From positions 190,583 through 254,582 of the forward strand of contig JAFAZH010000022.1 in the NCBI GenBank assembly GCA_019239895.1: 64,000 bases of DNA, given 5' to 3'. Of the stretch, positions 12,375 through 48,868 are shown piece after piece. The notes under the pieces are model-generated. The model saw only the letters and a list, made by a program, of their open reading frames with translations. It was not told the origin of the DNA and made no database searches. Position numbers and translations under genes: made by a program. Every line of letters starts with the position of its first letter. Positions within the stretch are counted from its first letter, which is position 1. The stretch is from Abditibacteriaceae bacterium. GTDB taxonomy: Bacteria; Armatimonadota; Abditibacteriia; Abditibacteriales; Abditibacteriaceae.

Positions 12375-13004
12375 TTAGCGGAGAGGAACCGACCAGGCGG
12401 CATTGAAGCCATCGCGGTCTACGTTTTTCACATGACCATCGGCATAGAGGATATTGTAACGCTTGCTGCTCCAGAAACTTGTCACACCAGTGCCATGCCA
12501 ATCGCCAGAGCCATCTTCCAGCACGTTGGTTTCCACCGGACGAGACAGGTGCTCATCCGCCAAGTTAAGCAGCGTTAATTCTGTGCGATAAAAGTAGCTC
12601 ATGCTATATTTCTCATAGCAAGAGGGGCGTGTCGGTAAAGGGATGCCGGTGGTATCGCAAACATCAAAGCCATAGTCCGAAGGGCACTCCCACAGCGATT
12701 TATTTTTAACATAGGGGTCCATCACGACTGGCAAGAGAGGTGTATCGGCCATTGTCTGCTGATACTCAGGCGGCCAGATTTGCGGCGTATACTTATCGGC
12801 AGGGTCTAAACCGCGTGGATAACGCTCATTATCGGTGGCATAGAGTTGGATGGCCTCACCTAATTGACGCAAGTTCGAGGCACACTGGGTGCGCCGCGCA
12901 GCTCCACGCACGCCACTGAATGCGGGTAGCAAAATCGCCATGAGAATTGTGAGAATGGCGACGACCACAAGGATTTCAACGAGGGCAAACCCGCGCTTTT
13001 TCAT
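12375..13004 (-). CDS. Prepilin-type N-terminal cleavage/methylation domain protein (DUF1559/PulG-like pseudopilin)
   Basis: Real start taken at [29 protein letters not shown] (class III signal peptide with the G-F-A-L-V-E motif), followed by H-x-DG-type C-terminus (YADGHV). The longer ORF in the six-frame track overlaps nagA. Confidence 0.8.
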
Positions 13005-13041
13005 GGATTCTTCTCCGCCCCCCGCCTGGCAGTTGATATAG

Positions 13042-14001
13042 TTGATAAAGAGGGCATTAGTACCAACTTTAAGGGGCATTATGCATACCAATTCGGGCTT
13101 TTTCGATCTGCAAGTCAATGGTTATGGTGGTGTTGATTTTAATCAGGACGATTTAACCGCCGAGCAGTTGCATACAGCTTGCGCGGCATTAGCAGAGGCA
13201 GGCGTGGCTGGAATTCTGGCAACAGTTATCACCGAAGAAGTAGACAAAATGGCGCTGCGCCTCTCGAACCTGATGAAGTTGCGACAAGCGGATGCCCTGG
13301 CCCAGCAAATCATTGCAGGCTTCCACATCGAAGGCCCCTTTTTAAATGAAACACCAGGTTATCGTGGTGCTCATCCCGCAGATGCCATTCGGCCCGCCGA
13401 CACAGACAATATGAAGCGTCTCTTAGATGCCGCAGGTGGGCTAACCCGTTTAGTCACCTTAGCCCCCGAACGTGATCCACAACTGCAAGTCACCCGAATG
13501 CTGACAGAGCAAGGCGTTACCGTTTCTGCGGGGCATTGCGATCCCAGTCTGGATGAACTAAAAGCCGCCATTGATGCTGGCCTGAGTATGTTCACTCACT
13601 TGGGTAATGGCTGCCCGATGCAGATGCATCGCCACGATAACATTATTCAACGCGCTTTAAGCCTGAGCAACCAACTCTGGCTCTGCTTTATCGCGGATGG
13701 CGTTCATGTCCCGTTCCCCGCTCTTGGTAATTATCTTCGTGCCGCCGGGATAAAACGTTGTGTAGTGGTCACCGATGCCATCGCGCCCGCTGGTTTGGGG
13801 CCAGGGGATTATACCGTCAGTCGCTGGAATTTAACCATTGGCCCCGACATGGTGGCCCGTGCCCCTGATGGCTCGCATCTCATTGGCTCAGCCATCACTA
13901 TGCCCCAGAGCGTGCAGAATTTAATGGATCACCTGGACTTATCCGAAGCGGATGCTCATAAACTGACGGCAGAAAATCCGCACCGTGCGGTAGGAGTGTA
14001 A
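13042..14001 (+). CDS. nagA: N-acetylglucosamine-6-phosphate deacetylase-like amidohydrolase
   Basis: 319 aa. N-terminal [15 protein letters not shown] metal-binding motif is typical of NagA. Convergent with nagB. Confidence 0.7.
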
Positions 14002-36601: not shown

Positions 36602-36763
36602 CTATCAATAGAAGCACATAAAAATTGTTATAAATTAGGTGTAAAATTTTTTACAGCAGATGAATCCAGCCTCACCGCGATTCTCAGCTAAAAAGAAACG
36701 ACCTCTGTTCCAAAACAGAGGTCGTTGATCTTGCTAAAGAGCAGCACGGCTCGTCGGTTTCGT

Positions 36764-38308
36764 TCAGGTGCCGGAGGTAAAACCTAATGCTCCCGCAAAA
36801 GCGGCACGGCGACGCTTAACAAAAGTCGCTGGAGAAGTAAAGCCTTCGCCGGTATGACCAGCCAGACTCATCGCCAGAAAGCCTTCACCGTTGATACCCT
36901 CGGCAGCCGAAGAGGAACCATTGGCAACGAAGACCGTGCATTGGTAAGCGTTGCGCACCGCAGTAATGCGCATGATGTCTTTGCTATGGATGACTAAAGT
37001 ATGGCCTCGTCCAGCTTCGGCTTTAAGCGCGACTTCCAGAGCTTCGTTAAAATCGCGTGCCCGGACTAATGGCATCACTGGCATCAATTGCTCTTCCACA
37101 ACCAGGTCGTGATTGGCAGGCACTTCTAAGAGGGCGACTTTAGTGCTGGCGGGCGCATTGACCCCGATACGTTGCAGAATGCGCGCGGCATCCCAGCCAA
37201 TGGGTTCTTTATTAATGTGCCCATCTTGCACCACATAATCGGCCAGGCGGCGGGCTTCCTCGCCTTGCACTAAGTAGGCTCCTGCTTCTTTCATCGCGGC
37301 AATCAGGGCGTCCGCTTTTTCCTGCACCACGACCGTCACCTTTTCGCCAATGCACAGCAGATTGTTGTCGAAAGAAGCGCCATTCACAATCGAGCGAGCC
37401 GCGTTGGGAATATCAGCCGTTTCATCTACAATCGCCGGGGGATTGCCTGGCCCGGCACAGACGGCCTTCTTGCCGACAGCCAAAGCCGCTTTGACGACGG
37501 CGGGGCCACCTGTGGCATTGATTAACCGCACAACCGGGTGCTTCATGGTGGCTTCAGCCGATTCAATGGTGGGGTTAGCCACGGACGTAAACATATTGGC
37601 CGGGCCACCATGCGAGGTAATCGCCTCATTCATCAAAGCCATAGTGGTGAGCGTACACTTCTTAGCCGAAGGATGTGGACAAATCACGGCTGAGTTACCC
37701 GCTACGGCAAAGATAATGGCGTTGTTAATGAGGCCAGAAGTTGGATTCGTGACCGGCGTGATACCGCAGATGACACCATAAGGAAAGTAATCATCAATGG
37801 TCAGGCCAAAGTCGCCGAGGTAAGTCTGTAACGGCAGCATCTCGAAGCCGGGTGTCTTTTCAGCACATAAGCGATTCTTGACTTCTTTATCCGCTACCCG
37901 GCCTAATCCGGTTTCTTCAACCGCCATCTGTGCCAAACGCAAGGCGTTATCACAGGCGCGTCGCCGCATCGCTTCGACACACTGTTTGCGTCGCTCCAAA
38001 GGCATCTTGACCCAGGCCCGTTGTGCAGTCTGAGCCGCGCCAACAGCTTCTTCCACCGTGGCGAAGACACCATGCAGTGCCAGCAACTCGGCGGGATTGC
38101 CCTGCGGATGCGCGGCGGCAGGCCGATTCTGAGGATCATCAATGCGCCCCCCGCCCCGTGCCGAAGGCCCGCCATAAGCGCCAGGCGACTGATTGAGATT
38201 ATTCCCAGAAATCGCACCCGCGCCGTTGCCACTCCCATTACTGCCCAGGGACAGGCTATCTAACACGCCACGCACAATATCTTCAATTTGCTGCTCGTTA
38301 ATCTGCAT
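36764..38308 (-). CDS. CoA-acylating aldehyde dehydrogenase (EutE/PduP-like BMC core enzyme) with N-terminal encapsulation peptide and a Gly/Ser/Asn-rich linker
   Basis: 514 aa. The N-terminal amphipathic helix MQINEQQIEDIVRGVLDSL is followed by a roughly 70-aa low-complexity linker. The ALDH catalytic region includes LLCIGEKV, containing the catalytic Cys. Confidence 0.9.
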   Translation of the reverse strand: MQINEQQIEDIVRGVLDSLSLGSNGSGNGAGAISGNNLNQSPGAYGGPSARGGGRIDDPQNRPAAAHPQGNPAELLALHGVFATVEEAVGAAQTAQRAWVKMPLERRKQCVEAMRRRACDNALRLAQMAVEETGLGRVADKEVKNRLCAEKTPGFEMLPLQTYLGDFGLTIDDYFPYGVICGITPVTNPTSGLINNAIIFAVAGNSAVICPHPSAKKCTLTTMALMNEAITSHGGPANMFTSVANPTIESAEATMKHPVVRLINATGGPAVVKAALAVGKKAVCAGPGNPPAIVDETADIPNAARSIVNGASFDNNLLCIGEKVTVVVQEKADALIAAMKEAGAYLVQGEEARRLADYVVQDGHINKEPIGWDAARILQRIGVNAPASTKVALLEVPANHDLVVEEQLMPVMPLVRARDFNEALEVALKAEAGRGHTLVIHSKDIMRITAVRNAYQCTVFVANGSSSAAEGINGEGFLAMSLAGHTGEGFTSPATFVKRRRAAFAGALGFTSGT

Positions 38309-38326
38309 AATTCACTTCCTAGTTTG

Positions 38327-38462
38327 GAACCACCGATAAACACGGATGGACACAGATGAGAAAGAGGATCGAGGATAGAAGATTGAGGATCGCAATTTAC
38401 GTATCCAGTATCTTGTATCCAGCATCCTAATTATCTGTGTCTATCTGTGTTCATCGGTGGTT
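38327..38462. repeat. Composite hairpin element E1. Outer arms: aaccaccgataaacacggatggacacagatga / atctgtgtctatctgtgttcatcggtggtt. Inner segment: gaggatcgaggatagaagattgaggatcg.
   Basis: Read directly. It lies between the stop of the 276-aa gene and the start of the aldehyde dehydrogenase gene. Confidence 0.6.
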
Positions 38463-38467
38463 AATTC

Positions 38468-39298
38468 TTATTGAATATCTAAGCCTAATTCACGGGCACG
38501 GTCGCGGGCTAAAGGTGTAATTAAGGCTCCAGCCGGTAATTGTAAAGGTTGGCCCTTACGGGCAAGCTGATCAATGTCCTGCGCCGTGATAAGTTGCTTT
38601 TTACCGTTGCCTGCTGGCTTTACAGCCCCCCCACCATTGAGGGCATTGGACTGTGTTCCAAAACGGGCTGTAATGATTGGGACAAGCTGCGTGGCAGGAA
38701 CAATTTCAAAACCATAGCTCGCTAGGGCGCGGCGATGACCTTCAAACATGCGCTTGAGCAGCGGGCTACGTGTTTTCAGGGCTTCATCATAAGGCGCGTG
38801 TAAGGCCGCAATGAGGGGCTTGCCCAACGCGATGGCAGAAAGGGCTGTTCGCGCTACGGGTTCATCAAAGATACCTAGGGCCATTTTCGCCGCATCGTCA
38901 TCACCGACAGCGGGCAAGAGTACAACATCATGTTCGGCAATCAGCCTTTCACGGGGAACTCGCTGCTTCAGTTCGTCTTCGGCGGGTTGAGTAATCTCGA
39001 AATGGGCGGCGTGTAAAGCATCTAAAGCAGTTCGGGCCTGGTCGTTTAAACATTCTTCACAGCACACCGCGACTAAAATACGACCCGCCACCTCCACGCC
39101 CTCAATGGCCGTGCCACGCCCCAACTGCACCGCGTTACCAATTTTAACCGAACCAGGCTGTCGCATTAAGGAGTTAGGGGCAAGGCCGTCTTGCTGACGC
39201 GTTGAAGATCCGTTGACTCGCACACCGCGTTCCTGCAAAAGACGCAGCACAACTTGGCTGATGATTTCCTCTAAATTTTGCAATTCGTTTCCACTCAC
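38468..39298 (-). CDS. BMC-associated protein of unknown function with N-terminal encapsulation-peptide-like helix
   Basis: 276 aa. N-terminus ELQNLEEIISQVVLRLLQERG, then a Q/S-rich linker. A CC-EEC cysteine cluster. The C-terminal repeat LITAQDIDQLARKG...LITPLARDRARELGLDI. No family recognised. Confidence 0.55.
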   Translation of the reverse strand: MSGNELQNLEEIISQVVLRLLQERGVRVNGSSTRQQDGLAPNSLMRQPGSVKIGNAVQLGRGTAIEGVEVAGRILVAVCCEECLNDQARTALDALHAAHFEITQPAEDELKQRVPRERLIAEHDVVLLPAVGDDDAAKMALGIFDEPVARTALSAIALGKPLIAALHAPYDEALKTRSPLLKRMFEGHRRALASYGFEIVPATQLVPIITARFGTQSNALNGGGAVKPAGNGKKQLITAQDIDQLARKGQPLQLPAGALITPLARDRARELGLDIQ

Positions 39299-39597
39299 GC
39301 GACTCGGCTCCGTCCGGTATTTCCCCGCGCCATTACGTCCACAGAATCTATAATGCCAACAATTAAGGTGCGCACCGGAATGCGTTTCATGCCTAACATA
39401 TCCTGGGCCGCTTTGCCCTCTTCAACCAATAGCACTAAATCGCCCTCGCCTGCCCCCACCGTATCTATCGCTGGGTGAGTGCGGCCATTTGGTTTCAGGT
39501 GTTCATCCACTGGCTGTACCACCATCAATTTCGTATTGGCATAAGCCGGGTGTTTGATGACGCCTTCAACATTTCCTATGACGCGCCCCAGTTTCAT
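39295..39597 (-). CDS. BMC vertex (pentamer) protein, EutN/PduN/CcmL family (BMC-P 1)
   Basis: 100 aa. MKLGRVIGNVEGV ... AIDTVGAGEGDLVLLVEEG ... IVGIIDSV. Confidence 0.85.
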   Translation of the reverse strand: MKLGRVIGNVEGVIKHPAYANTKLMVVQPVDEHLKPNGRTHPAIDTVGAGEGDLVLLVEEGKAAQDMLGMKRIPVRTLIVGIIDSVDVMARGNTGRSRVA

Positions 39598-39882
39598 CTA
39601 ATGTTCCTTAGCCGATGCAGCATTGGCTCGTACGTTATCTACAATGCCAACGATAGAGGCATCTACCGGGGGACGCTGCTCCCAGGCCAGGGGCGCTTCC
39701 CCGGAAGTTTCATACCACACGAACTCACCCGCTCCGACACCAATCGCATCAGCGGCAATCATTTGCGCCCCGGCTGGCTGCCCGCTATGGTCACACCCCT
39801 GCACAATCAGCAAGGGGATATTTTCTAATTTCGGGTCTTTGATGGTGCAGACCACACGCCCGATAATTTTCCCAAAGTCCAT
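39598..39882 (-). CDS. BMC vertex protein, EutN/CcmL family (BMC-P 2)
   Basis: Start taken at the ATG of MDFGKIIGRVVCT; the upstream in-frame start in the ORF track is GTG. Motifs DAIGVGAGEFV and IVGIVDNV. Confidence 0.85.
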   Translation of the reverse strand: MDFGKIIGRVVCTIKDPKLENIPLLIVQGCDHSGQPAGAQMIAADAIGVGAGEFVWYETSGEAPLAWEQRPPVDASIVGIVDNVRANAASAKEH

Positions 39883-39895
39883 AGCTTGTTTATTC

Positions 39896-40029
39896 ACCAC
39901 AAAGACACAAAGAGCACAAAGGGACGACTAAAATAGGGAATTGTGAATTTAACAATCTCTGACTATTCTTGATCTTCTATTTGCAAGCCTCTGTCCCTAA
40001 AACCTTTGTGCCCTTCGTGTCTTTGTGGG
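39896..40029. repeat. Composite hairpin element E2 (arms accacaaagacacaaagagcacaaaggg / cctttgtgcccttcgtgtctttgtggg)
   Basis: Read directly. It lies between the BMC-P3 stop and the BMC-P2 start. Confidence 0.6.
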
Positions 40030-40038
40030 AATCTAACC

Positions 40039-40323
40039 TCAGATATTCACTCGTTTGCCATCGCACTCGACTGAATCCACGATGCCGATGACCGAAGAAT
40101 CTACTGGCACTTGCTCAGCACGGTTGGCCAGGCGCGCGGAAGAACCAGCCACGGTGAGAACGGTTTCGCCAATACCCGCCCCGACGGTATCTATCGCCAC
40201 CACATAGGTATCGGTCAGGCTACCGTCCATCTTCATCTCGCGCACGAGCAGCAGTTTCCAGCCGACCAGTTTAGGGTCTTTCTGCGTTGCGACCACGGTG
40301 CCGACCACTTTGCCAAGTCTCAT
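40039..40323 (-). CDS. BMC vertex protein, EutN/CcmL family (BMC-P 3)
   Basis: 94 aa. MRLGKVVGTVVAT ... AIDTVGAGIGETVL ... IGIVDSVE. Confidence 0.85.
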   Translation of the reverse strand: MRLGKVVGTVVATQKDPKLVGWKLLLVREMKMDGSLTDTYVVAIDTVGAGIGETVLTVAGSSARLANRAEQVPVDSSVIGIVDSVECDGKRVNI

Positions 40324-40332
40324 GATAAGTTA

Positions 40333-40423
40333 GGTTATAGGTGATGGGTTATAGGTGATAGGTAATAATTGACCTATGAACAATGATAAGCGCAAATTCC
40401 TTTGGCCTATCACCTATAACCCC
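40333..40423. repeat. Hairpin element E3 made of degenerate ttataggtga tandem repeats (ggttataggtgatgggttataggtgataggtaa ... cctatcacctataaccc)
   Basis: Read directly. It lies between the PduL stop and the BMC-P3 start. Confidence 0.5.
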
Positions 40424-40425
40424 TG

Positions 40426-41208
40426 TCATTTACAAATCCGGCAGATGCCAGCGCGTGGGGAAAGCACTAAAGCTTTCGCGCCGGGTTGCACGCCAGCGGC
40501 ATTGCCTTCATCGGTATCAATATGCATCTCAGCTTTAAAGGCTGGATCGGTGCGAATTAAGACATTGTAGAACACTAAGCCTTGATCCCCTGCCGGAATT
40601 TCAACCGGAATTTCATCGCCATCTTTGACACCGAGCAAGCTGGCCTCGTCGGGATGCAGATGCACATGGCGTTTAGCGCGAATCAGCGCATCCGGCAGGT
40701 GAATGCTACCCTGTGGCCCGACTATTGTAATAGGTGAACCTGTGCCATGATTAACCGATTGTAAAATCGGCGGCATCATGCCCAGCGATAAGGCATCGGT
40801 GCGCGAAACTTCAAACTGACTCTTGCTGCGCTCCGGCCCTAAGATACGCACATTGGAAATCGAGCCACGCGGCCCCACAATCTGCACCAGTTGCTCACTG
40901 GCGAACTGCCCTTCTTGATACAGAAACTTAAAGGGCGTCAACCGCTGACCGGGGCCAAAAAGTTGCTCCACATGCTCCGGCGTGAGGTGCCCATGCCGCG
41001 CCGAGATATTGCAGGGAAACCCCTCCTGCGCAATCTGCTCCGGTGAAGGTTGCTGCGCACTCGCTTCAGCCCCAAACGGCGTGGTGGGGCTACCCGGTGT
41101 AAGCCTCGCACTACCATGCCCGTTGCTGCCCACGCCCCCGGCTCCCCCCAATTGAGTTACCACTTCCTGGGTAATCAGCCGCACCAAGTCTTCGTATGAA
41201 ATCTTCAT
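40426..41208 (-). CDS. pduL: Phosphotransacylase PduL (phosphate propanoyl/acyltransferase) with N-terminal encapsulation peptide
   Basis: Start at the ATG of MKISYEDLVRLITQEVVTQL (amphipathic helix plus G-rich linker). Two PduL repeats are present (RHVHLHPDEAS..., HIDTDEGNAAG). Confidence 0.85.
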   Translation of the reverse strand: MKISYEDLVRLITQEVVTQLGGAGGVGSNGHGSARLTPGSPTTPFGAEASAQQPSPEQIAQEGFPCNISARHGHLTPEHVEQLFGPGQRLTPFKFLYQEGQFASEQLVQIVGPRGSISNVRILGPERSKSQFEVSRTDALSLGMMPPILQSVNHGTGSPITIVGPQGSIHLPDALIRAKRHVHLHPDEASLLGVKDGDEIPVEIPAGDQGLVFYNVLIRTDPAFKAEMHIDTDEGNAAGVQPGAKALVLSPRAGICRICK

Positions 41209-41223
41209 AGCAGAACAGGTGGA

Positions 41224-41334
41224 ACTACGAATGAACACGAATCAACACAAATGAAGTAGATACTGGATACTCGATCCTCTATCTTCGATCTTCTATCCTC
41301 TTTTATTTGTGTCCATCTGTGTTCATTCGTGGTT
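41224..41334. repeat. Composite hairpin element E4. Arms: aactacgaatgaacacgaatcaacacaaatga / tcatttgtgtccatctgtgttcattcgtggtt. Inner: ggatactcgatcctctatcttcgatcttctatcctc.
   Basis: Read directly. It lies between the BMC-H stop and the pduL start. Its inner repeats match those of E1 in reverse orientation. Confidence 0.6.
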
Positions 41335-41602
41335 AAAACACTTTTTCAAGATCAGTATGTGGGCGGGGAATGACATGAACACTGACCAGTTCACCCACAC
41401 GCTGAGCGGCGGCGCTACCGGCATCGGTGGCTGCTTTCACAGCGCCTACATCGCCTGCGACCATGACGGTGACTAAACCGCCGCCGATGCTCTGCTTGCC
41501 CAGCAATTCCACATTGGCCGCTTTGACCATTGCGTCGGCGGCTTCAATCGCGCCGACTAAACCTTTTGTTTCCACTAAACCTAACGCTTCTCCGTTTGCC
41601 AT
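41333..41602 (-). CDS. BMC shell hexamer protein (BMC-H, PduA/EutM family)
   Basis: 89 aa. [29 protein letters not shown] ... [13 protein letters not shown]. Confidence 0.9.
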
Positions 41603-41663
41603 TGTACTCTCCTATTTTTCATCGAACGTCTCTTAATTCAATTTATTTGTCTCTGCCTAAAGC

Positions 41664-42080
41664 TTAACGGCGTCCGCGCTGACTGGTAGCACGCTCCGCA
41701 GGCTCGCCGTCGTTGGCACTGTCCTGTCCCGCGGGCAAGCCCTTGCCGGGGCCGCTGCCATTGAGGGCGCCGATGTAGTGACCAAAAGCGCGCGGCGATT
41801 TACCATGACCCTTGGGCAAAATCTTTTCTAAGTCCGCGTGTGGCCGTGCAATAACGTGGGCCGAAATCACTTCACCCACGCGACGTGCAGCAGCGGCTCC
41901 GGCATCAACAGCCGCCGTCACTGCGCCCACATCGCCACGCACCGTCACTGTGACTAAAGCCGACCCTACCTGGTCATAACCTTCCAGTTGCACGTTGGCC
42001 GACTTTGCCATCGCATCGGCGGCTTCAATCAGGGCGATTAAGCCCTTCGTTTCCACAAGTCCTAAAGCTTCTCCCGGCAT
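41664..42080 (-). CDS. BMC shell hexamer protein (BMC-H) with ~45-aa C-terminal Gly/Pro-rich extension
   Basis: 138 aa. [29 protein letters not shown] ... [13 protein letters not shown], then a low-complexity tail. Confidence 0.9.
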
Positions 42081-42141
42081 AATCTCTCCTTGTCCTCTGT
42101 TTCCAGGGCATTACTGATTCTTCAAATTCGTATAGCTGCGT

Positions 42142-43059
42142 TCACTTTTGTAAGCTTTCAGCTACTCGACGGGCTACCTCGCCTATGATGCGGCGCAGTT
42201 CTTCTTCACCGATCTCAATCTCGGCTGGCTTGCCATTGCTACCATTGGCCGCGTTATTCGATTGAGCCGATGGACGCGCATTGGCATTATCATCGCTGGC
42301 CCCGGCATAAGCTGCCGCTCCAAAGCCGGTGCGCGGCACATCCGGCGCGTAGTTCACGTTCTTGTCTTTGTCTTTATATTCTATGCGGCAACTGCCCCCG
42401 GCTTGCACTCCATAACGCGCTCGCGCTTCCATGAGTTCTTGTGCCCGTTCTGGCGAGAACACATTTTCTGAACCAAGCTGGCGGGCGACCAGGGAAATCT
42501 TGGCGAAGTGCTCAACGGTTTCCATCTTGTAGTAGGCATTCATCACCGTCTGCCCGATAGTAACCACGCCATGATTGGCTAACAAGAATGCATCGTATTC
42601 CTGCACATAATTGTCGAGAATGTCCTGGGTCAACTCATCGCTGCCAGGGACACCGTACTTCGCCAACGGCACACTGCCGAGGGTAATCACCACTTCTGGC
42701 AAGGTGCAACGATCAAGGCTGAGACCCGCCACCGCAAAACCGGTCGCCGTCAGAGGATGGGCATGGCACACGGCGCGCACATCGGGCCGGGCATCATAAA
42801 AGGCGCGATGCATCTTCAGTTCGCTGGAGGGTTTCATGGTACCGCGCAGCTTATTGCCCGCTCGGTCAATGACCACCAGCATATCAGGCGTCAGAAACCC
42901 CTTCGAGACACCAGTCGGAGTGGCCAGAATCTCATTCGCGTTTAGCCGCACGGAAATGTTGCCATCGTTGGCCGCCACATATTCACGATGCCAGATACGG
43001 CGGCCAATCTCGCAAATCTCTTCGCGCATAGTGCGTTCATTAAAAGTTTGTTCTGCCAT
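42142..43059 (-). CDS. Class II aldolase/adducin-family aldolase (fuculose/rhamnulose-1-phosphate aldolase-like) with C-terminal encapsulation peptide
   Basis: 305 aa. Metal-binding His motifs (CHAHPLTATGFA, LANHGVVTIG). C-terminal extension with Gly/Asn linker plus the amphipathic helix EEELRRIIGEVARRVAESL. Confidence 0.85.
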   Translation of the reverse strand: MAEQTFNERTMREEICEIGRRIWHREYVAANDGNISVRLNANEILATPTGVSKGFLTPDMLVVIDRAGNKLRGTMKPSSELKMHRAFYDARPDVRAVCHAHPLTATGFAVAGLSLDRCTLPEVVITLGSVPLAKYGVPGSDELTQDILDNYVQEYDAFLLANHGVVTIGQTVMNAYYKMETVEHFAKISLVARQLGSENVFSPERAQELMEARARYGVQAGGSCRIEYKDKDKNVNYAPDVPRTGFGAAAYAGASDDNANARPSAQSNNAANGSNGKPAEIEIGEEELRRIIGEVARRVAESLQK

Positions 43060-43080
43060 AAAATTATCCGTAAATACCGT

Positions 43081-43935
43081 TTAGGCTTGCGCCACAATAA
43101 TCTGCACTTCAGCCCGTTGCAAGGCCGCCTCAATTTCAGCCGGAGGCGTTGCATCCGTTACCAGCACATCAATCTTTGCCCAATCGGCTACAAAAACCAT
43201 ATCGCGCCGCTGGAATTTCGCCGCATCCAACAGCAGGGCCACGCGATTCGCCCGCACCATCAATTCGCGCTGCCCTTCGACTTCCCAATGGTTAGAATCG
43301 TAAAACCCTTCTGCATCCGCACCACCGGCCCCAATTAACAACCAATCGCCAGCGCGCACATGATCGAGCGTCTGCTTGAGGTGAGGGCCAATTAAGATGT
43401 CGTGCTTGGGGTAGACCATGCCACCCGTCACCAACACATCCACACCCAGGGTTTCGCCCAATAAAGATGCTGCCGGTAGGGAGTTGGTCACTACGGAAAC
43501 ACGTCGCTGGCGCAGATGCTTCGCCGCCGCATAGCAGGTCGTGCCGCCCGCTAAGAGCACATTTTGCCCGTCCTCAATTAAAGCCGCCGCCGCTTCACCA
43601 ATGCGCGCTTTAGAGGTGGCGCGTAATTCGGCCCGTTGCGAGAAAGAAGTTACGTGGTCCAGCGTATCAACTGGAGAAACTGCTACTTCAGTTAAGCCCA
43701 CCACAGAGCCATTGGGTGATTTACTCTTGCCATTAGCGGATGCGGAGGAATAGCCATGCGAGCTAATAGCCCCGCCTCGCGTGCGCTGGAGCCGCCCGGT
43801 GCGATGCAGTTCTTCGAGGTCACGGCGCACGGTTGCATCGGAGACATGAAGCTGACGAGCCAAGGCTTTGACCTCCAAAAACGGCTGGCGGGCCAAGGCA
43901 TCTTCAATTTTGCTAAACCGATGAGCGCGGAGCAT
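43081..43935 (-). CDS. DeoR/GlpR-family transcriptional regulator
   Basis: 284 aa. N-terminal HTH (LARQLHVSDATVRRDLEELHRTGRLQRTRGGA) and a DeoR C-terminal sugar-phosphate-binding domain. Confidence 0.8.
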   Translation of the reverse strand: MLRAHRFSKIEDALARQPFLEVKALARQLHVSDATVRRDLEELHRTGRLQRTRGGAISSHGYSSASANGKSKSPNGSVVGLTEVAVSPVDTLDHVTSFSQRAELRATSKARIGEAAAALIEDGQNVLLAGGTTCYAAAKHLRQRRVSVVTNSLPAASLLGETLGVDVLVTGGMVYPKHDILIGPHLKQTLDHVRAGDWLLIGAGGADAEGFYDSNHWEVEGQRELMVRANRVALLLDAAKFQRRDMVFVADWAKIDVLVTDATPPAEIEAALQRAEVQIIVAQA

Positions 43936-44025
43936 TTGGTTCTATGATAATGCAACTCTGCGCGTTTGTCAACAACTTTACACAAATTTAATCAAAATAT
44001 TGCATAATCACGCAGAAACTCATCT

Positions 44026-44128
44026 TTTCAACACAAAGACCACAAAGAGAACACAAAAGCCACAAAAGGAGACAATACCGTCCTTCTTCGTGGTCTTTGT
44101 GCAACCTTTGTGGTCTTTGTGTTGAAAA
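44026..44128. repeat. Hairpin element E5 (arms ttcaacacaaagaccacaaagagaacacaaaagccacaaaagga / tccttcttcgtggtctttgtgcaacctttgtggtctttgtgttgaaaa)
   Basis: Read directly: roughly 45-bp arms built from cacaaag repeats. It lies between the Gfo/Idh/MocA stop and the deoR start. Confidence 0.6.
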
Positions 44129-44146: not shown

Positions 44147-45121
44147 TTACAAAGTCACAGGCTTACCAGTTTTAGCCGATTGATTCGCGGCTAAGGTCAC
44201 TTTAAGAGTTTTCAAAGCATCGGTATAGTTGCTCTTAATGCCCAACCGCTTGCCGGTCTTAACCGCTTTGATAAAGGCGCGGTCTTCGTCGAGATAGGGG
44301 TTGTTGCGGTGCTGATAAGTATTGGTCTCGCCGCTTTGACGGATAGTGAGGGTATTGCCACGCAGTTCATAAATGGCATCGCGCACCATGAGGTCGAGAC
44401 CTGTCTCACCCACGCCGCCTAACAGGGCTGCTGTAGAGATGTAGCCGATAGCACCACTGTCAAACTCCACCGTCAGGGCGGTCACGTCCGGTACGGTAGT
44501 ACCTTCATACACTTTGCCCATCTCGCGCAAGGCGGCACAACAATAGACTTTTTTAATATCGCCAATGAGATAACGGGCTAAATCCACAATGTGGGTGCAT
44601 TGTTCCACAAGCTGACCACCACTTTGATCCATGCGCCGCCACCAGGCGACTCCTGGAAACCCGCCCAGCCAGCGGCCATAGGCCATAGCAACCAGGGGCG
44701 CATTTTTAGCGTCCAGTAATTTTTGGGTGCGATCCGTGGCCTCGTGGTAGCGGAAGTGATAGCCAACCGCCGTGGTCACGCCCGCATCTTCGATGGCAGC
44801 AGCGATTTTTTCGGCAGTCTTCATATTATTGGAGAGGGGCTTCTCCACGAAGAGGGCGCATCCTTTTTGCGCAGCCAGGATTTCGGCATTTGTGTGCGCG
44901 TGGGGGGGCAGACAGATGTAGACGGCATCGAGAGTTTCGGCTTCCAACATTTTGCGCGGGTCGTCGTAGGCTTTGCCTTCAAAGCGGCGCGCGGCGGCTT
45001 CGGCACGGTCGGTCGCCACGTCACTAAAAGCGACCAACTGGGCATCGTTAATCTGCGAGAGTGTGTTGAAGTGGGCACCGGCAATGCCACCGGCCCCCAC
45101 AAATCCTATGCGTACTGGCAA
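44147..45121 (-). CDS. Gfo/Idh/MocA-family NAD(P)-dependent oxidoreductase
   Basis: 324 aa. Rossmann N-terminus MPVRIGFVGAGGIAGAHF and the EKP motif (FVEKPL). Confidence 0.85.
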   Translation of the reverse strand: MPVRIGFVGAGGIAGAHFNTLSQINDAQLVAFSDVATDRAEAAARRFEGKAYDDPRKMLEAETLDAVYICLPPHAHTNAEILAAQKGCALFVEKPLSNNMKTAEKIAAAIEDAGVTTAVGYHFRYHEATDRTQKLLDAKNAPLVAMAYGRWLGGFPGVAWWRRMDQSGGQLVEQCTHIVDLARYLIGDIKKVYCCAALREMGKVYEGTTVPDVTALTVEFDSGAIGYISTAALLGGVGETGLDLMVRDAIYELRGNTLTIRQSGETNTYQHRNNPYLDEDRAFIKAVKTGKRLGIKSNYTDALKTLKVTLAANQSAKTGKPVTL

Positions 45122-46569: not shown

Positions 46570-46570
46570 A

Positions 46571-46768
46571 GACCTAACCCCCCGTCCCCTTTCCCGGCAC
46601 GGGAAGGGGGTGTCACAGGACAACCATTCTCTTTTATTATTCCGCTTTGATTGCCTGAATGAGCAATTTCCCTTTTGACCTAAAACAACCCAAAACCTAT
46701 AAAGGTGCTATAAAGTCATCCTCAGACACCCCCTTCCCGTGCCGGGAAGGGGGACGGGGGGTTAGGTC
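46571..46768. repeat. MITE-like element: perfect 44-bp inverted repeats (gacctaaccccccgtcccctttcccggcacgggaagggggtgtc) separated by 110 bp. A related solo copy lies at 49861-49960.
   Basis: Arms 46571-46614 and 46725-46768 are exact reverse complements. The element fills the gap between the acidic-protein stop (46569) and the PBP2 start (46775). Confidence 0.6.
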
Positions 46769-46774
46769 TTTCCA

Positions 46775-48740: not shown

Positions 48741-48868
48741 CTTTCAACACAAAGAACACGAAGAATACAAAGGTCGCAGAGGATAAGTAGAAGTGGAGAA
48801 GGCGTTGCTTTGACCTTCTCTCCCTTTTGTGCCCTCTGTGCCATCTTTGTGTTCTTTGTGTTGAAAAG
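48741..48868. repeat. Composite hairpin element E6 (arms ttcaacacaaagaacacgaagaatacaaagg / cctctgtgccatctttgtgttctttgtgttgaa; inner gaggataagtagaag)
   Basis: Read directly. It lies between the convergent PBP2 (+) and ADP-ribosylglycohydrolase (-) genes. Confidence 0.6.

Follow-up and report, generated by a model that had tools for sequence, protein, structure and literature searches.

A putative PVM-related, aldolase-type microcompartment operon in an Abditibacteriaceae genome

Which organelle is encoded by a compact block of ten genes in a 64,000-nucleotide stretch of contig JAFAZH010000022.1 from an Abditibacteriaceae bacterium (the whole 64-kb stretch is hereafter referred to as the window)? 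The block combines genes for shell proteins of bacterial microcompartments (BMCs) with genes for a class II aldolase, a CoA-acylating aldehyde dehydrogenase (AldDH) and a PduL-type phosphotransacylase (PTAC), and an initial annotation made from the sequence alone had assigned it to the Planctomycetes/Verrucomicrobia (PVM) type of BMC. The PVM type is that of Axen 2014 and Sutter 2021, and the PVM microcompartment of Planctopirus limnophila is said to have been described by Erbilgin et al. in 2014. The analysis reported here indicates that the block is probably a self-contained operon (~43972 to ~36697) encoding a PVM-related, aldolase-type metabolosome in a member of the Abditibacteriaceae. 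It is filed as a PVM-related aldolase metabolosome and not as a strict PVM locus, the relation to PVM resting on gene content and not on a tree. The kind of organelle is already known and no current model is overturned by the locus; what is new is mainly the host and the departures from the textbook PVM arrangement.

Gene content of the locus and the proposed pathway

The block comprises ten co-directional minus-strand genes that extend from 43935 to 36764 over 7.2 kb (Table 1), and every open reading frame (ORF) was found in place when the coordinates were checked. The initial annotation had counted nine genes, a number now corrected to ten, and the products it had listed (a DeoR-family regulator, the class II aldolase, two BMC-H proteins, PduL, three BMC-P proteins, a 276-aa protein and the AldDH) were all recovered. 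Nine of the ten genes score above the curated Pfam/NCBIfam cut-offs in hidden Markov model (HMM) searches, the exception being the 276-aa protein; all five shell genes exceed their thresholds, and their identification as shell genes stands. BMC-H (PF00936) and BMC-P (PF03319) genes are clustered with genes for an AldDH (PF00171) and a PduL-type PTAC (PF06130), which is the core combination expected of a metabolosome.

Gene calls made independently on public contigs match the ORFs of the locus apart from the starts of PduL and BMC-P 2. They place the PduL start at the ATG at 41208, MKISYEDL being the true N-terminus, and the BMC-P 2 start is confirmed at 39882. The two BMC-H paralogues are 71% identical to each other and the second of them matches the NCBIfam EutM model with 134 bits (cut-off 133). 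Among the vertex proteins, BMC-P 2 is 40% identical to BMC-P 1, and BMC-P 3 is 37-38% identical to the other two; the best solved relative of BMC-P 1 is the H. ochraceum shell pentamer 5v74. The BMC-P 3 gene abuts that of BMC-P 2 and shares 4 nt with the gene that follows. No further BMC, EutN, aldolase or AldDH gene was detected in the window outside the locus, and no BMC-T (tandem-BMC) gene anywhere in the window. BMC-H 1 carries a C-terminal extension of ~50 aa (41664-41815), the proximal motif and basic end (..RR) of which are kept in four of the four relatives described below.

Residues expected to be important for catalysis were examined in the two central enzymes. In the aldolase, E80, H99 and H101 are conserved and H163 is nearly invariant among 30 homologues; these positions align with what we take to be the acid/base and zinc-ligand positions of FucA. 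Over its whole length, including the segment NNLLCIGEK with its presumably catalytic Cys, the AldDH can be aligned with the aldehyde dehydrogenases 5jfl and 4c3s, which are its best solved relatives and which we take to be BMC-associated enzymes.

Table 1. Coordinates of the genes, encapsulation tags and non-coding elements of the locus (positions are those of the window, except for the CorA-like gene of the relatives)
Feature	Coordinates	Strand	Size or residues	Evidence and remarks
Sigma-70-like promoter	43944..43972	-	TTGACA, 17 nt, TATCAT	consensus match, 11/12; ends 8 nt upstream of DeoR ATG
DeoR-family transcriptional regulator	43081..43935	-	284 aa	Pfam HTH_DeoR 52.8 bits, DeoRC 128.3 bits
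Class II aldolase, signature enzyme	42142..43059	-	305 aa	Pfam Aldolase_II 161.3 bits (cut-off 22.2)
Aldolase C-terminal encapsulation peptide (predicted), EEELRRIIGEVARRVAESLQ	42148..42207	-	residues 285-304	AlphaFold2 helix, pLDDT 74-93; hydrophobic moment 0.78, percentile 100
BMC-H 1	41664..42080	-	138 aa	Pfam BMC 94.2 bits (cut-off 24.5)
BMC-H 2, canonical hexamer protein	41333..41602	-	89 aa	Pfam BMC 102.5 bits (cut-off 24.5)
Hairpin	41223-41334			-42.2 kcal/mol, z -4.6
PduL-type phosphotransacylase	40426..41208	-	260 aa	Pfam PTAC 210.7 bits (cut-off 25)
PduL N-terminal tag (predicted)	41158-41208	-	residues 1-17	conservation and encapsulation-peptide profile; hydrophobic moment 0.45, percentile 91.5
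Hairpin	40333-40421			-32.2 kcal/mol, z -5.0
BMC-P 1, most canonical vertex protein	40039..40323	-	94 aa	Pfam EutN_CcmL 106.8 bits (cut-off 25)
Hairpin	39897-40028			-58.5 kcal/mol, z -7.0
BMC-P 2	39598..39882	-	94 aa	Pfam EutN_CcmL 80.4 bits (cut-off 25)
BMC-P 3	39295..39597	-	100 aa	Pfam EutN_CcmL 87.7 bits (cut-off 25)
PvmL-like protein	38468..39298	-	276 aa	AlphaFold2, Foldseek and family profile; no Pfam match above threshold
PvmL-like N-terminal tag helix (predicted)	39230-39292	-	residues 3-23	AlphaFold2, pLDDT 85-93; hydrophobic moment 0.53, percentile 96.8
Long intercistronic hairpin, PvmL-like/AldDH gap	38328..38462	-		inverted repeat; -67.1 kcal/mol, z -10.1
CoA-acylating aldehyde dehydrogenase (AldDH)	36764..38308	-	514 aa	Pfam Aldedh; NCBIfam PRK15398 537.6 bits (cut-off 403)
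AldDH N-terminal tag (predicted)	38252-38308	-	residues 1-19	conserved; linker of ~60 aa after tag; hydrophobic moment 0.65, percentile 99.4
Intrinsic-terminator-like hairpin	36697..36726	-	13-bp stem and T tract	consensus scan; 38 nt after AldDH stop
CorA-like gene in relatives	L005 5394-6161; L006 7010-7726; L008 8171-8887; L009 8052-8768			PF01544

We infer encapsulation, shell formation, the substrate and the operon boundaries from sequence, and the pathway may be outlined as follows. The two BMC-H paralogues would tile the facets of the shell and the three anciently diverged BMC-P paralogues would cap its vertices, while amphipathic terminal helices on flexible linkers would recruit the aldolase, PduL, the AldDH and the 276-aa protein, which is PvmL-like (see below), into the lumen. 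Inside the shell the aldolase would cleave a ketose-1-phosphate to dihydroxyacetone phosphate (DHAP) and an aldehyde; if PVM is taken as the model, the substrate would most likely be L-fuculose-1-phosphate or L-rhamnulose-1-phosphate and the aldehyde lactaldehyde. The AldDH would convert the aldehyde to acyl-CoA with formation of NADH, PduL would regenerate CoA by making the acyl-phosphate, and both acyl-phosphate and DHAP would then exit the shell. The DeoR regulator probably senses the sugar phosphate, and the enzymes for recycling of NAD+ and harvesting of ATP (PvmO and PvmG in PVM loci) would have to be encoded elsewhere or replaced. The aldolase/AldDH/PduL sequence inside a shell is the accepted model for PVM.

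Encapsulation tags and the PvmL-like protein

Four encapsulation peptides (EPs) had been proposed in the initial annotation, N-terminal in the AldDH, the 276-aa protein and PduL and C-terminal in the aldolase, and all four are present, terminal and separated from the rest of the protein by linkers. Hydrophobic moments were calculated on 15-residue windows and expressed as percentiles of all the 15-mers of 11 proteins, namely the products of the ten locus genes and of the neighbouring Gfo/Idh/MocA oxidoreductase gene (hereafter Gfo); the four tags occupy high percentiles (Table 1). The extensions are conserved in orthologues, and the two tags that were modelled are both predicted to be helical. 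In the AlphaFold2 model of the aldolase, a core of residues 1-220 (predicted local distance difference test, pLDDT, >90) is followed by a disordered linker at about 230-281 and the terminal helix, and in that of the 276-aa protein a disordered stretch (31-63) follows the N-terminal helix.

The sequence patterns of the tags are retained over different evolutionary distances. The AldDH N-terminus [QKR]I[NS]E.QIE.IVRGV is kept even in distant homologues, MKIS[YH]E[DE]LV..LI of PduL in four relatives, and the N-terminal helix of the 276-aa protein in 28 homologues. The aldolase C-terminus E.EL..[LIV][IV].EV.RRV occurs in all the tagged orthologues and in homologues from Moorella, Armatimonadetes and Latescibacterota; it is missing in 72-80% identical homologues of 220-238 aa, which end directly after the catalytic domain. 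EP linkers are normally not conserved. In the AldDH linker (residues about 37-76, 38080-38200), a motif GAYGGPS..GGGRIDDPQNRP is conserved across the clade, which is unusual for an EP linker.

An EP HMM for the PVM PF02441 proteins was built from 59 sequences by Sutter et al. 2021 (PMC8217296). The core of this model (positions 11-24) was rebuilt as a profile and all the locus proteins were scored with it. Its best sites coincide exactly with the four proposed peptides (PduL 16.2, AldDH 13.6, the 276-aa protein 10.6 and the aldolase 2.8 bits), and all the shell proteins, DeoR and the Gfo gene product score negatively. As a test of PvmL orthology the profile was rejected, since PduL and the AldDH outscore the 276-aa protein; scoring three different proteins, it is thus a generic tag detector and not an orthology test. 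Tags at the C-terminus of BMC class II aldolases and at the N-terminus of AldDH and PTAC were already catalogued in 2015 (PMC4594438). The standing PVM model thus already has cleavage take place inside the shell; the initial annotation, which had deduced from the tagged aldolase that the C-C cleavage step would occur in the lumen, agrees with this accepted model but does not make a new prediction. With five shell proteins and four putatively tagged cargo proteins, the compact locus would be convenient for reconstitution of shell and cargo.

The fourth tagged protein, of 276 aa and described as unknown in the initial annotation, is probably a degenerate protein of PvmL type with the PF02441 flavoprotein fold, as indicated by AlphaFold2/Foldseek and a family profile. 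HMM searches return only sub-threshold matches, to E3_binding and to TIGR02536 eut_hyp. The AlphaFold2 model (mean pLDDT 83.8) matches, at E about 1e-4 in Foldseek, FMN-dependent cysteine decarboxylases, phosphopantothenoylcysteine decarboxylase, UbiX and dipicolinate synthase B (DpaB). The family profile, searched against 1.84 billion representatives, retrieves 1808 clusters at E<=1e-3, of which 8 lie at E<=1e-30 and are followed by a sharp gap. Members of the wider family are 250-270 aa long, with an EP-like N-terminal helix in 98 of the 146 top representatives; those checked match PF02441 and have their whole architecture in common with the window protein. PF02441 'Flavoprotein' is the PvmL of the PVM locus, and related eut_hyp proteins of SPU4 loci carry an N-terminal EP as well (Sutter et al. 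2021, PMC8217296). Both PvmL and its EP tag being published, the fourth tagged protein is a known BMC component. The N-terminal EP, linker, flavoprotein-like core and C-terminal ...TPLARDRA... module are common to it and the eut_hyp (TIGR02536)/BMC PF02441 family (SPU4, FRAG6, FRAG7, PvmL), whereas the window protein belongs to a small subfamily (8 of the 1808 clusters) that lacks the cofactor loops, has a ~25-residue deletion and carries a Cys triad.

This triad, a CCxxC motif at residues 79-83 (39050-39064), stands as VCC[DE]EC in place of the FTGGTIGL loop of the wider family. In the Abditibacteria subfamily C83 never varies, and C79 and C80 show at least 90% conservation; in the wider family CCxxC is rare (4 of 146 representatives). 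The subfamily also has PAVGDDDAAK where the wider family has PVLTQNTAAK, and the deletion of ~25 residues is a feature of the Abditibacteria subfamily relative to the wider family. With the cofactor loops replaced and these residues deleted, flavin binding by the Abditibacteria PvmL-like protein is doubtful.

The C-terminal module of the protein covers ~40 aa (residues 236-276, 38471-38593; ...ITPLARDRARELG...; ...ITAQDI....G..L.LP.GALITPLARDRARELG), and no Pfam model for it was found. A scan with two motifs of the PvmL-like family retrieved 41 loci, mostly through the module motif (including L010-L045). Shell genes lie nearby in 37 of these loci, and in 26 of the 41 a BMC-P gene is the immediate neighbour of the gene with the module. 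Fusions of the module, at the N- or C-terminus, involve otherwise unrelated proteins of BMC loci, namely RpiB, a EutQ-type cupin, PF02441-like cores and short tagged proteins. A speculative and rather unlikely reading is that the PvmL-like protein serves as a non-flavin, vertex-associated adaptor or redox module, with a lumen tag, a CCxxC motif for a metal or Fe-S centre and a C-terminal module that may dock cargo or electrons to the pentamer; if so, it could route the reducing equivalents of NADH out of a shell that has no alcohol dehydrogenase (ADH). The degenerate PvmL-like protein with its C-terminal module is the one component worth follow-up, and the locus could help test the roles of the widespread PvmL/eut_hyp family and of the TPLARDRA module beside BMC-P genes.

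Host, substrate and relation to known microcompartments

For the 276-aa protein, the AldDH and the aldolase alike, NCBI lists a 100% identical protein from an Abditibacteriaceae metagenome-assembled genome (MAG) of an uncultured organism, and the genome is therefore placed in the phylum Abditibacteriota. The initial annotation had suspected a genome outside Planctomycetes from the presence of pilin-like genes; the conclusion is right in the light of the exact matches, but the argument fails. The DUF1559 pilin-like family is also abundant in Planctomycetes, and such genes are thus no evidence against a planctomycetal origin. The gene in question (12375-13118, minus strand) encodes an N-terminal methylation motif and a DUF1559 (SBP_bac_10) domain. 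No link of Abditibacteria or Abditibacteriota to a BMC was found in those parts of the BMC catalogue text and of the literature that were searched, and aldolase-type (PVM-related) microcompartments are now extended to the Abditibacteriota.

When one genome for each GTDB species was scanned by motif, the 276-aa protein had full-length relatives in only five Abditibacteriaceae/Abditibacteriia genomes. The whole block, DeoR-aldolase-H-H-PduL-P-P-P-PvmL-like-AldDH, recurs in the same order in representatives of four other Abditibacteriaceae species (L005, L006, L008 and L009), the DeoR gene opening it in these as well, and a fifth relative (L007) on a truncated contig shows the part from BMC-P 1 to the AldDH. 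The three BMC-P orthogroups are retained, and the ORFs of the relatives are intact, with 50-88% identity. The DNA flanking the block is wholly different from species to species, and the block thus behaves as a cassette. In four relatives PduL and the first BMC-P gene are separated by a gene for a CorA-like membrane protein (PF01544, 31.8 bits), which has no counterpart in the window, where a 102-nt gap with a hairpin occupies the corresponding position.

Comparison with the published parts list supports the relation to PVM, since the locus has counterparts of PvmB, D, E, H, J, K, L, M and N, that of PvmL being a putative one. The class II aldolase (PF00596) carries a putative C-terminal EP, two BMC-H genes accompany a triplet of distinct BMC-P genes, and loci of the PVM type typically have a DeoR regulator. 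The PVM locus of Planctopirus limnophila likewise combines a C-terminally tagged aldolase, N-terminally tagged PvmJ, PvmB and PvmL, two BMC-H proteins, a BMC-P triplet and DeoR. It differs in its host phylum and gene order and in the presence of PvmG and PvmO; the PvmL-like protein of the window has lost the glycine-rich and TxNT-type loops and has CCxxC instead, and no named close homologues come from PVM phyla (best 120 matches for the AldDH and the aldolase).

Several points weigh against the proposed reading or against a strict PVM assignment. The relatives of the locus are all Abditibacteriaceae/Abditibacteriia, while Planctomycetes and Verrucomicrobia are the only hosts given for PVM (Sutter 2021, PMC8217296), a criterion that is distributional and not mechanistic. 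The 276-aa protein agrees with PvmL in fold, family profile and N-terminal EP but does not reach the Pfam PF02441 threshold and has lost both conserved cofactor-loop motifs. The PduL tag is moderately amphipathic, 148 of 2000 shuffles being equal or better (91.5th percentile). The operon lacks PvmG (acetate kinase) and PvmO (Ldh-like), neither of which was found among the annotated or scanned genes of the window, and no Fe-ADH, Zn-ADH or Ldh-like gene was seen in the block or among the larger ORFs scanned in the window, as the initial annotation had remarked for acetate kinase and alcohol dehydrogenase in the locus. The aldolase stays below every NCBIfam equivalog cut-off, and OtnC-like models top its NCBIfam and PDB matches ahead of FucA: its best curated match is 3-oxo-tetronate-4-phosphate decarboxylase (140.3 bits, cut-off 250), with FucA models at 116.6 bits or less, and its best PDB matches are 6voq and 6vop. 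Genes for a fucose/rhamnose isomerase, kinase or fucosidase were found neither in the window nor in the flanks of the relatives.

The last two points would fit a different chemistry, in which the substrate is not fuculose- or rhamnulose-phosphate but another deoxy-sugar or a tetronate-type phosphate, and the aldehyde not lactaldehyde. We consider this possible, though clearly the less probable case. All the characterised BMCs with a tagged aldolase use fucose or rhamnose, and a decarboxylase would yield no aldehyde for the adjacent AldDH; moreover, a sulfatase and a major facilitator superfamily (MFS) sugar transporter flank the locus in one relative and would fit sulfated deoxy-sugar polymers. 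By analogy with the known systems, fucose or rhamnose is the best guess for the substrate. The catabolism of L-fucose/L-rhamnose asserted by the initial annotation is a homology inference only, the gene context being devoid of supporting genes.

That the block is a strict PVM locus, which a planctomycete or verrucomicrobium passed on horizontally and which degrades L-fucose/L-rhamnose exactly as in Planctopirus limnophila, appears unlikely. The parts list is equal except for PvmG and PvmO, the shell complement (two BMC-H, three BMC-P, no BMC-T) and the EP pattern are equal, and the cassette behaviour, with unrelated flanks in each species, would suit transfer. Against this stand the host restriction of the type noted above and the gene order, which in the locus is aldolase-H-H-PTAC-P-P-P-PvmL-AldDH as against B..D,E..G,H..J,K,L,M,N,O for the lettered Pvm genes. 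The PvmL-like protein, in turn, forms a separate subfamily, set off by the sharp gap in the family profile. Within the best 120 matches for each enzyme, identity outside the Abditibacteria clade does not exceed 54% for the AldDH and 61% for the aldolase. The relatives named among these matches are, for the AldDH, Poribacteria, unclassified bacteria and Armatimonadetes, the last being MAGs related to ones that the catalogue places under MUF2, and, for the aldolase, Moorella, Armatimonadetes, Latescibacterota, KSB1 and Bacteroidota, with no Planctomycetes or Verrucomicrobia protein among the named ones. The AldDH matches of 43-50% identity on multi-megabase contigs proved to be Poribacteria-type satellite pairs of BMC-H and AldDH and not PVM loci, and a tblastn search of the AldDH against plasmids returned Eut/Pdu-type AldDHs only and no PVM reference locus. 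The PVM-type assignment of the initial annotation holds with respect to gene content, and does not hold with respect to host phylum, gene order and the absence of PvmG/PvmO from the window; its use of the lack of BMC-T as a PVM hallmark is not strict, some PVM loci carrying a T_pvm protein (PMC8217296).

The PVM-related aldolase metabolosome was also compared with other known types. MUF2 loci, known from Gemmatimonadetes and one Armatimonadetes genome, have an AldDH said to be closest to the PVM enzyme (Sutter 2021, PMC8217296). They share with the window locus an AldDH and PTAC in the main locus, the same EP pattern and a BMC-P triplet, and the window AldDH shares 50% identity with that of Armatimonadetes CG_4_10, a MAG with relatives in the MUF2 list. 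Their own features, namely BMC-T, a fused BMC-H, an extra BMC-P and an aldolase that is usually in a satellite locus, are not those of the window locus, and the type was ruled out as there is no tandem-BMC gene in the window and the aldolase lies in the main locus. The ACI type (PF00389 hydroxyacid dehydrogenase, satellite AldDH, Acidobacteria only) was likewise ruled out, the AldDH being in the locus and a PF00389 gene lacking from it, and the PVM-like type fails on its defining features. A close known system is found in an Armatimonadetes MAG (L049, GCA_040364295), which is grouped with the PVM-like/GRM5-type aldolase loci. Its order is nearly the same (aldolase-H-H-H-PTAC-PF02441-like-P-AldDH) and its aldolase is also C-terminally tagged, with identities to the window proteins of 46% (AldDH) and 60% (aldolase); it differs in having a single BMC-P and three BMC-H genes and a PF02441-like protein that keeps the FTG-type loop.

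A cofactor-recycling alcohol dehydrogenase is also lacking in many catalogued BMC types, and the locus could help test how metabolosomes without this enzyme recycle NAD+. The initial annotation had offered the Gfo/Idh/MocA oxidoreductase gene (44147-45121) as the missing NAD+-recycling partner of the organelle, an assignment that finds little support and that we hold to be quite improbable. The gene is oriented like the operon and stands 211 nt upstream of DeoR, a close orthologue occupies the same place in L005, and more distant Gfo-family genes stand beside the aldolase in two other BMC loci (L037 and L039). It is, however, located upstream of the best promoter-like site and outside the predicted operon, from which it is separated by a 100-nt hairpin (-59.9 kcal/mol). 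Its product has no EP-like helix at either end (67th and 81st percentile; -12.8 bits on the EP profile), and the upstream flanks of L006, L008 and L009 lack the gene, which thus adjoins the locus in one of four relatives.

That the locus is a decaying or non-functional remnant is highly improbable, since the lack of PvmG, PvmO and the CorA-like gene of the relatives from the window and the degenerate flavoprotein-like core are set against ten intact ORFs, conserved catalytic residues, synteny across five species and retention of the degenerate PvmL-like form, with its nearly invariant Cys triad, in 28 homologues.

Predicted operon boundaries, intergenic hairpins and neighbouring elements

The promoter-like and terminator-like sites (Table 1) bracket the block, and the ten genes therefore look like one predicted transcription unit. 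Long hairpins occupy four of its intergenic gaps, the most stable of them between the PvmL-like and AldDH genes, and none is present in the two 61-nt gaps around BMC-H 1. The arms of the hairpins consist of tandem units of 8-10 nt. The same repeat families occur in the intergenic gaps of the block in L005, L007 and L008, several of them at the corresponding gap. Long hairpins also lie in the window at 44025-44128 and 48742-48866.

The possibility that the hairpins are specific to the operon was rejected. One family, with the unit ACACRGAT, is confined in the window and relatives to the two operon gaps, but a metagenome scan retrieved ten paired copies, none of which (0 of 10) lies next to BMC genes. 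These copies away from BMC genes indicate that the hairpins are dispersed repeats resembling repetitive extragenic palindromic (REP) elements. They might set segmental mRNA stability.

Rfam and tRNA scans gave no match in the locus. Elsewhere in the window, a 6S RNA gene was identified at 463-677 on the minus strand (Rfam RF00013, 59.1 bits; gathering score 46.4). An inverted repeat of 51 nt at 46570-46769, the arms of which are 94% complementary and 98 nt apart, lies just upstream of a gene for a PBP2-type transpeptidase.

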